From assembly GCF_056746865.1 (NCBI RefSeq), contig NZ_CM163382.1: 64,000 bases of DNA. The stretch is one strand, 5' to 3'. The notes beneath the pieces were generated by a model. The model was not told the DNA's origin, made no database searches, and saw only the letters and a program-made list of their open reading frames with translations. Positions 58,256 through 58,993 of this stretch are shown piece by piece (within the stretch, counting starts at the first letter, position 1; the number at the start of each line of letters is the position of its first letter). The position numbers were made by a program, and so were the translations under genes.

Positions 58256-58993
58256 ATTGTCGGATGCGTCGTGTGGCGCATCCGACACCGTGCGCCGATG
58301 CCTGATGCGACGCTGACGCGTCTTATCATGCCTACAGGCCTGAACCGTAGGTCGGATAAGGCGCTCGCGCCGCATCCGACACCGTGCGCCGATGCCTGAT
58401 GCGACGCTGGCGCGTCTTATCATGCCTACAGGTCTGAACCGTAGGTCGGATAAGGCGCTCGCGCCGCATCCGACACCGTGCGCAGATGCCTGATACGACG
58501 CTGGCGCGTCTTATCATGCCTACAGGCCTGAACCGTAGGTCGGATAAGGCGCTCGCGCCGCATCCGACACCGTGCGCCGATGCCTGATGCGACGCTGGTG
58601 CGTCTTATCATGCCTACAGGCCTGAACCGTAGGTCGGATAAGGCGCTCGCGCCGCATCCGACACCGTGCGCAGATGCCTGATGCGACGCTGGTGCGTCTT
58701 ATCATGCCTACAGGCCTGAACCGTAGGTCGGATAAGGCGCTCGCGCCGCATCCGACACCGTGCGCAGATGCCTGATACGACGCTGGCGCGTCTTATCATG
58801 CCTACAGGCCTGAACCGTAGGTCGGATAAGGCGCTCGCGCCGCATCCGACACCGTGCGCAGATGCCTGATGCGACGCTGGTGCGTCTTATCATGCCTACA
58901 GGTCTGAACCGTAGGTCGGATAAGGCGCTCGCGTCGCATCCGACACCCCGCGCCGATGCCTGATGCGACGCTGACGCGTCTTATCAGGCCTAC
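58256..58993. repeat. tandem REP/BIME array, about 8 copies of a 94-bp unit, between prpE and codB
   Basis: Units containing catccgacaccgtgcgccgatgcctgatgcgacgctg recur every 94 bp (58279, 58373, 58467, 58561, 58655, 58749, 58843, 58937). Confidence 0.85.

Follow-up and report, generated by a model that had tools for sequence, protein, structure and literature searches.

A tandem REP array between prpE and codB of Escherichia coli that appears to be an expanded allele of the K-12 REP26 element

REPs of E. coli are imperfect palindromes of 30–40 nt of the Y, Z1 or Z2 type; a conserved GTAG stands 5' of the stem foot, and they are usually located outside genes in a 3' UTR. BIME-2 elements consist of y and z2 REP palindromes that stand in inverted orientation, are joined by short linkers and are present in multiple tandem copies; BIME-1 elements are single-copy, contain a z1 REP and possess a long L linker that bears a site for IHF (Ton-Hoang, 2012). 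The number of tandem BIMEs found at one locus differs between strains (quoted in Ton-Hoang, 2012), and the RayT protein has been proposed to amplify BIMEs (Ton-Hoang, 2012). BIME-2 elements in general are bound with high affinity and cut by DNA gyrase; gyrase cleavage is enriched in them, with Y palindromes being cleaved more than Z2 palindromes. REP325, a six-unit BIME-2 array located between yjdM and yjdN, reduces expression of the downstream gene about 8–10-fold, stabilises the upstream mRNA, yields a ladder of hairpin-terminated RNAs, and confers a partial sensitivity to bicyclomycin that is seen only with the full-length array (Harris et al., 2026). The same report describes REP effects as context-dependent and finds that terminal REPs do not generally prolong mRNA half-life (Harris et al., 2026). 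One Y-linker-Z2 unit of REP325 constitutes the RNA naRNA4. For the K-12 chromosome, Harris et al. (2026) list in their supplementary tables REP25 between prpB and prpC (349606–349970) and REP26, a tandem pair, between prpE and codB (354600–354770). Both the REP/BIME-2 element as such and its polymorphism in copy number are already known kinds of thing.

The window, the whole 64,000-nucleotide stretch of DNA that we analysed, matches the chromosome of E. coli 118UI at 100% identity, and the RefSeq gene order of that strain is prpR, prpBCDE, codBA and cynR. A repeat search of the window revealed a tandem array with a 94-bp spacing throughout between prpE and codB. Tandem Repeats Finder delimits it to positions 58277–58993 (period 94, 7.6 copies, 96% matches, 0% indels, score 1315), and the block extends over 58258–58993 once the degenerate hairpin at its left border is counted in (Table 1). 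The initial annotation had described a block of about 740 bp at 58256–58993 with about eight 94-bp copies, a description that our delimitation into eight units confirms. The array is extragenic, lying between the prpE stop codon at 58252 and the codB start at 59153, and it fills most of the 900-bp gap that separates these genes in the window; this gap measures 329 bp in K-12 MG1655. The Tandem Repeats Finder score, together with an RNA folding z-score of −11.8, excludes a chance origin of the block.

Table 1. Positions of genes, REP palindromes and neighbouring sequence elements in the window.
Feature	Position	Strand	Basis
prpB-prpC array (K-12 REP25), 5 units of 93 bp	53161-53632		Tandem Repeats Finder, 5.1 copies
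prpE, propionate--CoA ligase, last gene of prpBCDE	56366-58252	+	ORF list and RefSeq annotation of the identical 118UI sequence
prpE stop codon TAA	58250-58252	+	
Whole BIME-2 array, expanded allele of K-12 REP26	58258-58993		Tandem Repeats Finder, coordinates checked
Degenerate Y-like palindrome TGTCGGATGCGTCG-TGTG-GCGCATCCGACA, perfect 13-bp stem	58258-58287	+	
Z2-type REPs (CTAC at 3' end), first four	58300-58335, 58394-58429, 58488-58523, 58582-58617	+	
Z2-type REPs, remaining four	58676-58711, 58770-58805, 58864-58899, 58958-58993	+	
Y-type REPs (GTAG at 5' end on + strand), first four	58347-58380, 58441-58474, 58535-58568, 58629-58662	-	
Y-type REPs, remaining three	58723-58756, 58817-58850, 58911-58944	-	
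Natural IS621 target ATCAGGCCTAC in terminal Z2 REP	58983-58993	+	Target sequence from PMC11208160
Tandem duplication CTACCCA/CTACCCA, right border of array	58990-59003	+	Tandem Repeats Finder 58990-59005, period 7
C-rich, G-poor, rut-like tract (26 C and 3 G in 79 nt)	58994-59072	+	Base counts
codB promoter-like site TTTGCA-17-TATATT	59037-59065	+	Consensus scan
PurR-box-like sequence ACGAAAACGATTGCTT	59071-59086	+	Sequence
codB, cytosine permease, GTG start	59153-60412	+	ORF list and 118UI RefSeq annotation

One degenerate hairpin opens the array and is followed by eight Z2-type and seven Y-type REPs in alternating orientation, 16 palindromes in total. The order is Y'(degenerate)-Z2-Y-Z2, continuing to a final Z2, with Z2 always on the plus strand and Y always on the minus strand. 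When typed against the three REP sequences quoted in Durrant et al. (2024; PMC11208160), the eight plus-strand REPs are identical to the Z2 reference at 34–35 of 36 positions, and the seven inverted REPs match the Y reference at 28–29 of 34 positions. All 15 canonical REPs carry the GTAG/CTAC tetranucleotide, which is absent from the degenerate first hairpin, and each of them folds as RNA into a hairpin with a dG of −14.8 to −21.4 kcal/mol. The tail-to-tail linker AGGCCTGAACC comprises 11 nt and the head-to-head linker ACCGTGCGCMGAT 13 nt. The block had already been recognised as a REP/BIME array, and the presence of 15 canonical Z2/Y REPs in a BIME-2 arrangement bears this out; judged by its sequence and position, the prpE-codB block is a BIME-2 element and the orthologue of K-12 REP26.

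The two borders of the array differ from its interior. The first hairpin begins 6 nt beyond the final nucleotide of the prpE stop and folds with a dG of −23.9 kcal/mol (z −5.1); it is closest to the Y REP, albeit poorly (24/36), and a weak naRNA4 match lies over it (58258–58332; 49.9 bits). It is kept in K-12, O157, WG5, UMNF18 and E. whittamii and in all examined strains except muskdeer13-4, whose prpE stop codon is directly adjoined by a canonical Y REP in place of the degenerate hairpin. At the other border, the terminal Z2 REP is the sole Z2 copy with an intact stem foot (CAGGCC). The internal copies read CATGCC, so that the foot of their stem contains a mismatch, and their calculated dG is −14.8 kcal/mol versus −21.4 kcal/mol for the terminal copy. 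Since K-12 shows the same distinction between internal CATGCC and terminal CAGGCC, the internal unit is what multiplied. Units 3 and 6 are identical to each other and carry a G-to-A variant (GATACG; 58490–58517 and 58772–58799), through which a weak sigma-70-like match (CTGATA-16-TATCAT, 9/12) arises within the Z2 REP. This match is probably due to chance, as three such sites were found versus 1.0 ± 1.0 expected.

The sense-strand RNA of the whole array has a predicted folding energy of −403 kcal/mol, the z-score given above being calculated against shuffled sequences. In the minimum free energy fold, each Z2 palindrome pairs with the next Y palindrome to form 90-nt hairpins. We examined covariation in an alignment of 33 distinct units from three loci (prpE-codB, prpB-prpC and REP325), which are paralogues. 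For the single REP hairpins, 96.6% of the cells were paired, 17 double-change cells occurred in three pairs, and none of 500 shuffles matched the score; for the long Z2:Y inter-REP hairpin, covariation in the same 33-unit alignment was no greater than in shuffles. Covariation hence supports the individual REP hairpins over the long inter-REP hairpins, and we rejected the latter as a conserved structure, their appearance in the minimum free energy fold notwithstanding.

The segment 57750–59500 (1751 bp), which includes the entire array, recurs with 100% identity in no fewer than 60 independent complete genomes, among them an isolate that bears the label ST69. Because these genomes were assembled independently, an assembly artefact, which the initial annotation had named as the finding that would speak against the repeats, is excluded. 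To compare alleles, we sampled evenly through 5,444 matching records and obtained 57 rows at the prpE-codB locus; the element was found in every genome sampled. A single unit was present in 16 of the 57 rows and two units in 28 (two of these with IS621 inserted), while three units occurred in six rows, five units in two, eight units in four, and nine full units plus a partial one in a single row. Comparison of the sequences across strains showed that one allele departs from another by an integral number of 94-bp units, the junctions keeping the unit phase. Strain WP7-S17, for instance, carries the window allele minus 282 bp (three units), with the junction inside a Z2 REP, and strain M11957 possesses unit 3 in one extra copy relative to the window. 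The O157:H7 strains contain eight or five units that are made of partly different unit variants. A three-unit array is present at the orthologous site of E. whittamii, so that the element is older than E. coli: at least one to three units were already in place before E. coli and E. whittamii split, and in the window lineage and in O157:H7 the array has grown to eight. A search of species-representative genomes with the exact tail-to-tail junction recovered it only at the prpE-codB locus and only in Escherichia (E. whittamii was returned); resting on that exact junction, the search has no bearing on diverged arrays downstream of prpE in genera such as Salmonella and Citrobacter.

Both the largest allele and the right border of the array show further remodelling. 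The M11957 allele (4504–5488 of L011) has a 985-bp gap whose right end has been altered by a deletion at a GATAA microhomology; the last Y and Z2 REPs are lost, along with the CCCACTGTTTTTACACC segment that precedes the codB promoter. The 7-bp duplication at the right border (Table 1) is present in 118UI, WP7-S17, XH988 and strain 41 and is absent from K-12, O157:H7, WG5 and E. whittamii; it puts a T5 run farther from the last hairpin.

Inside the window array, exact direct repeats of 104, 115 and 144 bp occur at lags of one, two and three units, respectively. Such repeats would serve as the substrate on which near-identical units undergo unequal homologous exchange or slip during replication, and units would be gained and lost in this way. 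RayT, the REP-associated transposase, possibly assists the growth of the array, and the rayT gene is intact in strain 118UI; a contribution of RayT to amplification may exist, and RecA-type exchange alone explains the alleles.

The window contains a second array between prpB and prpC, and the initial annotation had taken the two arrays to be related but distinct. An alignment of their consensus units agrees with this: 77 of 99 aligned positions are shared, and the longest common exact stretch measures 26 nt. The prpB-prpC unit consists of a Z2-type REP on the plus strand and a Y/Z2-hybrid REP on the minus strand. The two arrays resemble each other in orientation and architecture, with Z2 on the plus strand and GTAGGTCGGATAAG tails on the other REP, and both are polymorphic in unit number. 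They differ in their period (93 versus 94 bp) and in their linkers, which comprise 15 nt tail-to-tail and 9 nt head-to-head in the prpB-prpC array versus 11 and 13 nt in the prpE-codB array. Among 59 rows at the prpB-prpC locus, no unit was present in 23 (leaving a 44-bp gap), one unit in 16 (O157:H7 included), two units in one, three units in five, four units in 12 and five units in two; K-12 has four units. The locus (53140–53671) thus exhibits a presence/absence polymorphism, for which strain AR_0118 (L016) with its 44-bp gap provides an empty site that could be used to study how BIMEs insert. Many RefSeq annotations put a 'hypothetical protein' over this array, probably an ORF miscalled on account of the repeats; strain 118UI has no such call.

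Since about 40% of the complete E. coli genomes are devoid of the prpB-prpC array, it is dispensable for the operon. The two arrays also vary independently, as O157:H7 illustrates with one unit at prpB-prpC but eight at prpE-codB, and the bracketing of prpCDE by arrays is consequently peculiar to some strains. The notion that the arrays bracket prpC to prpE is accordingly correct for the window but not as a conserved design. The suggestion that the arrays mediate recombination likewise holds within the array, given the unit-phase alleles of one to at least nine units and the exact repeats of up to 144 bp, but not between the arrays: with a chimeric prpB-3'/codB-5' query, none of 5,231 genomes carried intact prpB 3' and codB 5' ends within about 900 bp, and we therefore discarded an inter-array deletion of prpCDE. 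The only prpB'-'codB deletion found, that of strain SCU-171 (L015, ~3133–3153), naturally fuses a truncated prpB to a truncated codB with loss of prpC, prpD and prpE; both of its breakpoints lie inside coding sequences and neither in the REP arrays.

IS621 is an IS110-family element whose recombination is guided by a bridge RNA, and ATCAGGCCTAC is the natural target reported for it (Durrant et al., 2024; PMC11208160). In strains XH988 (L010) and 41 (L012), IS621 is inserted exactly at the CT core of the target in the terminal Z2 REP, a site that is intact and unoccupied in the window. The internal Z2 REPs read ATCATGCCTAC, which differs from the target by one mismatch, and the prpB-prpC array holds four perfect sites. 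A scan for the tail motif found one further REP element in the 64-kb window besides the two prp arrays, namely an inverted Y/Z REP pair (61745–61788) between the convergent codA and cynR genes.

Downstream of the array, no intrinsic terminator (a GC-rich hairpin followed by a U run) was detected on the plus strand within 58000–59400; the T5 run at 59007–59011 sits 13 nt after the last REP. The C-rich tract that immediately follows the array coincides in part with the codB promoter region and might act as a loading site for Rho. Transcription of codBA is regulated by PurR. Because a promoter-like site and a PurR-box-like sequence are located 3' of the array, codBA is likely to possess its own promoter there. 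At the opposite flank, seven GATC (Dam) sites cluster in about 100 bp at the 3' end of prpE (58131–58231), the window average being 3.6 per kb. [quoted passage not shown]

Taken together, these data make it very probable that the prpE-codB array is a BIME-2 element orthologous to REP26 that grew by recombination or slippage, that would function as a stabiliser and attenuator in the manner of REP325, and whose copy number is near-neutral. It is best explained as a selfish or domesticated REP array. On the prp transcript, every REP would fold as a separate hairpin, and the stack of hairpins would block 3'-5' exonucleases and stabilise the prpE-proximal mRNA. Read-through into codBA would be attenuated, in part via Rho, with codBA being transcribed from its own promoter downstream of the array. 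By analogy, the array would stabilise the mRNA from within the 3' UTR of the prp operon and, as a partial attenuator, keep prp transcription apart from codBA, and insulation of codBA from prp transcription, one of the roles proposed in the initial annotation, is plausible. Against this model, the listed Rho-binding fragments near REP25 and REP26 are antisense, not sense (Harris et al., 2026, tables), and the context dependence of REP effects described above also counts. REPs within 15 nt of a stop codon have been reported to lower translation of the upstream gene, and the first hairpin would sit at a position where REPs reportedly stall terminating ribosomes. On the DNA level, DNA gyrase probably cleaves within the Y REPs, so that binding of gyrase is likewise plausible; the prp loci do not appear in the supplementary tables examined from the gyrase Topo-seq paper and from Ton-Hoang (2012). 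Binding of IHF, which had also been considered, is not borne out: among BIMEs it is the L linker of BIME-1 that carries IHF sites, and the IHF consensus WATCARNNNNTTR has no match on either strand of the prpE-codB or the prpB-prpC array.

The number of units itself is most likely nearly neutral. Since some strains manage with one unit at prpE-codB, or with no prpB-prpC array at all, any effect of the extra units is dispensable, and prpE was silent under the conditions of one K-12 study, the prp operon being silent without propionate. The length of an array can matter, because REP325 must be at full length before it shows any dependence on Rho. On this precedent rests a bolder reading that we deem unlikely, in which unit number would act as a heritable and reversible dial: an increase from one to eight or nine units would turn an mRNA end-protector into a Rho-dependent insulator and a strong gyrase site. 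If this were true, codBA, and with it pyrimidine salvage, would be uncoupled from propionate-induced prp transcription in the window lineage and in O157:H7, and the output of prpE would be changed in both.

That the expansion is outright adaptive, with unit number being a lineage-specific dial for prpE, codBA read-through or supercoiling that was selected separately in the window lineage and in O157:H7, strikes us as quite improbable. Eight-unit alleles do occur in two lineages with different unit variants, but the GATACG unit variant is common to both, and a common ancestry of the expansion is possible because such variants are shared. Within one lineage, at least 60 genomes share the eight-unit allele as a fixed state without a single sequence difference; clone-wide identity is, however, expected from recent common descent, and the same lineage contains variants with three units fewer and with one unit more. 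The requirement of REP325 for a full-length array, and the proposal of Harris et al. (2026) that REPs are tunable dials, speak in favour of selection on unit number.

A further reading, which we hold to be very unlikely, views the array as a battery of naRNA4-like genes whose RNAs of about 77 nt (Y-linker-Z2), released from the prp transcript, bind HU; the HU-bound RNAs would bridge cruciform DNA and condense the chromosome, as has been proposed for REP325. naRNA4 (RF02564) is the sole Rfam family that reaches its gathering threshold (59.5) in the whole window. Seven matches of 70.6–72.4 bits, each covering the full model (1–77) on the plus strand, fall into the prpE-codB array and four of 61.8–67.4 bits into the prpB-prpC array, so that all matches above the threshold are on the prp-transcribed strand. 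HU- and naRNA4-dependent condensation was reported by Qian (2015), who suggested the same role for homologues of REP325. The Rfam match, however, merely restates the Y/Z2 REP pair, and Harris et al. (2026), a study co-authored by the senior author behind naRNA4, observed that deletion or overexpression of REP325 leaves nucleoid volume unaffected, that no stable ternary complex of HU, cruciform DNA and naRNA4 is formed, and that Hi-C reveals no long-range REP-REP contacts. Silence of the prp operon in the absence of propionate, and a copy number that ranges from one to at least nine between strains, also argue against such a role.

There is next to no chance that the repeats are an assembly artefact or that the block codes for protein: tandem repeats are prone to assembly errors, and five minus-strand ATG ORFs of 61 aa are spaced at the repeat period, but related alleles recur in thousands of assemblies beyond the at least 60 identical ones, the sequence consists of canonical REPs, neither the 61-aa ORFs nor a 354-aa antisense ORF has a Pfam match, and the former arise from the periodicity, with the frame drifting because 94 is not a multiple of 3.

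The locus provides a natural allelic series (one, two, three, five, eight and at least nine units) at a single site, beside an array that ranges from zero to five units, and constitutes a test bed for the question whether the length of a REP array sets the strength of termination or of mRNA stabilisation. IHF binding and large-scale recombination between arrays, functions that are commonly recited for BIMEs, do not apply here. Arrays of this type are VNTR-like markers, landing pads for IS621 and spots at which annotation pipelines call spurious ORFs.

How the array relates to described elements can be stated for three of them. With BIME-1 (Y-L-Z1, which contains the IHF-binding RIP/RIB), it shares REP palindromes in inverted pairs; unlike BIME-1, it lacks a Z1 REP (none of its REPs has Z1 as the best-matching reference), a long linker and an IHF consensus. 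K-12 REP26 corresponds to it in locus, flanks, first hairpin, Z2-Y-Z2 units and the combination of internal CATGCC with terminal CAGGCC. The difference is one of number, REP26 comprising two units (the degenerate hairpin and three canonical REPs) and the window array eight (the hairpin and 15 REPs), and of the 7-bp duplication at the right border, which REP26 does not have. The 16 palindromes exceed the range of 1–12 palindromic units quoted for K-12 REPs, a difference of degree. REP325 is the only large BIME-2 array that has been dissected experimentally. Like the window array, it consists of tandem alternating Y/Z2 REPs between two co-oriented genes, its Y-linker-Z2 order reads along the direction of transcription, and its units score above the Rfam gathering threshold. 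In REP325, six 100-bp units have a tail-to-tail spacer of 17 nt that belongs to the 'U' motif, whereas the window array contains eight units of 94 bp with an 11-nt spacer, and the Y stems differ by compensated changes, with T-A in the window array and C-G in REP325. Finally, REP325 is embedded in an operon, whereas the window array is positioned between the end of one operon and a second operon that appears to be independently promoted.
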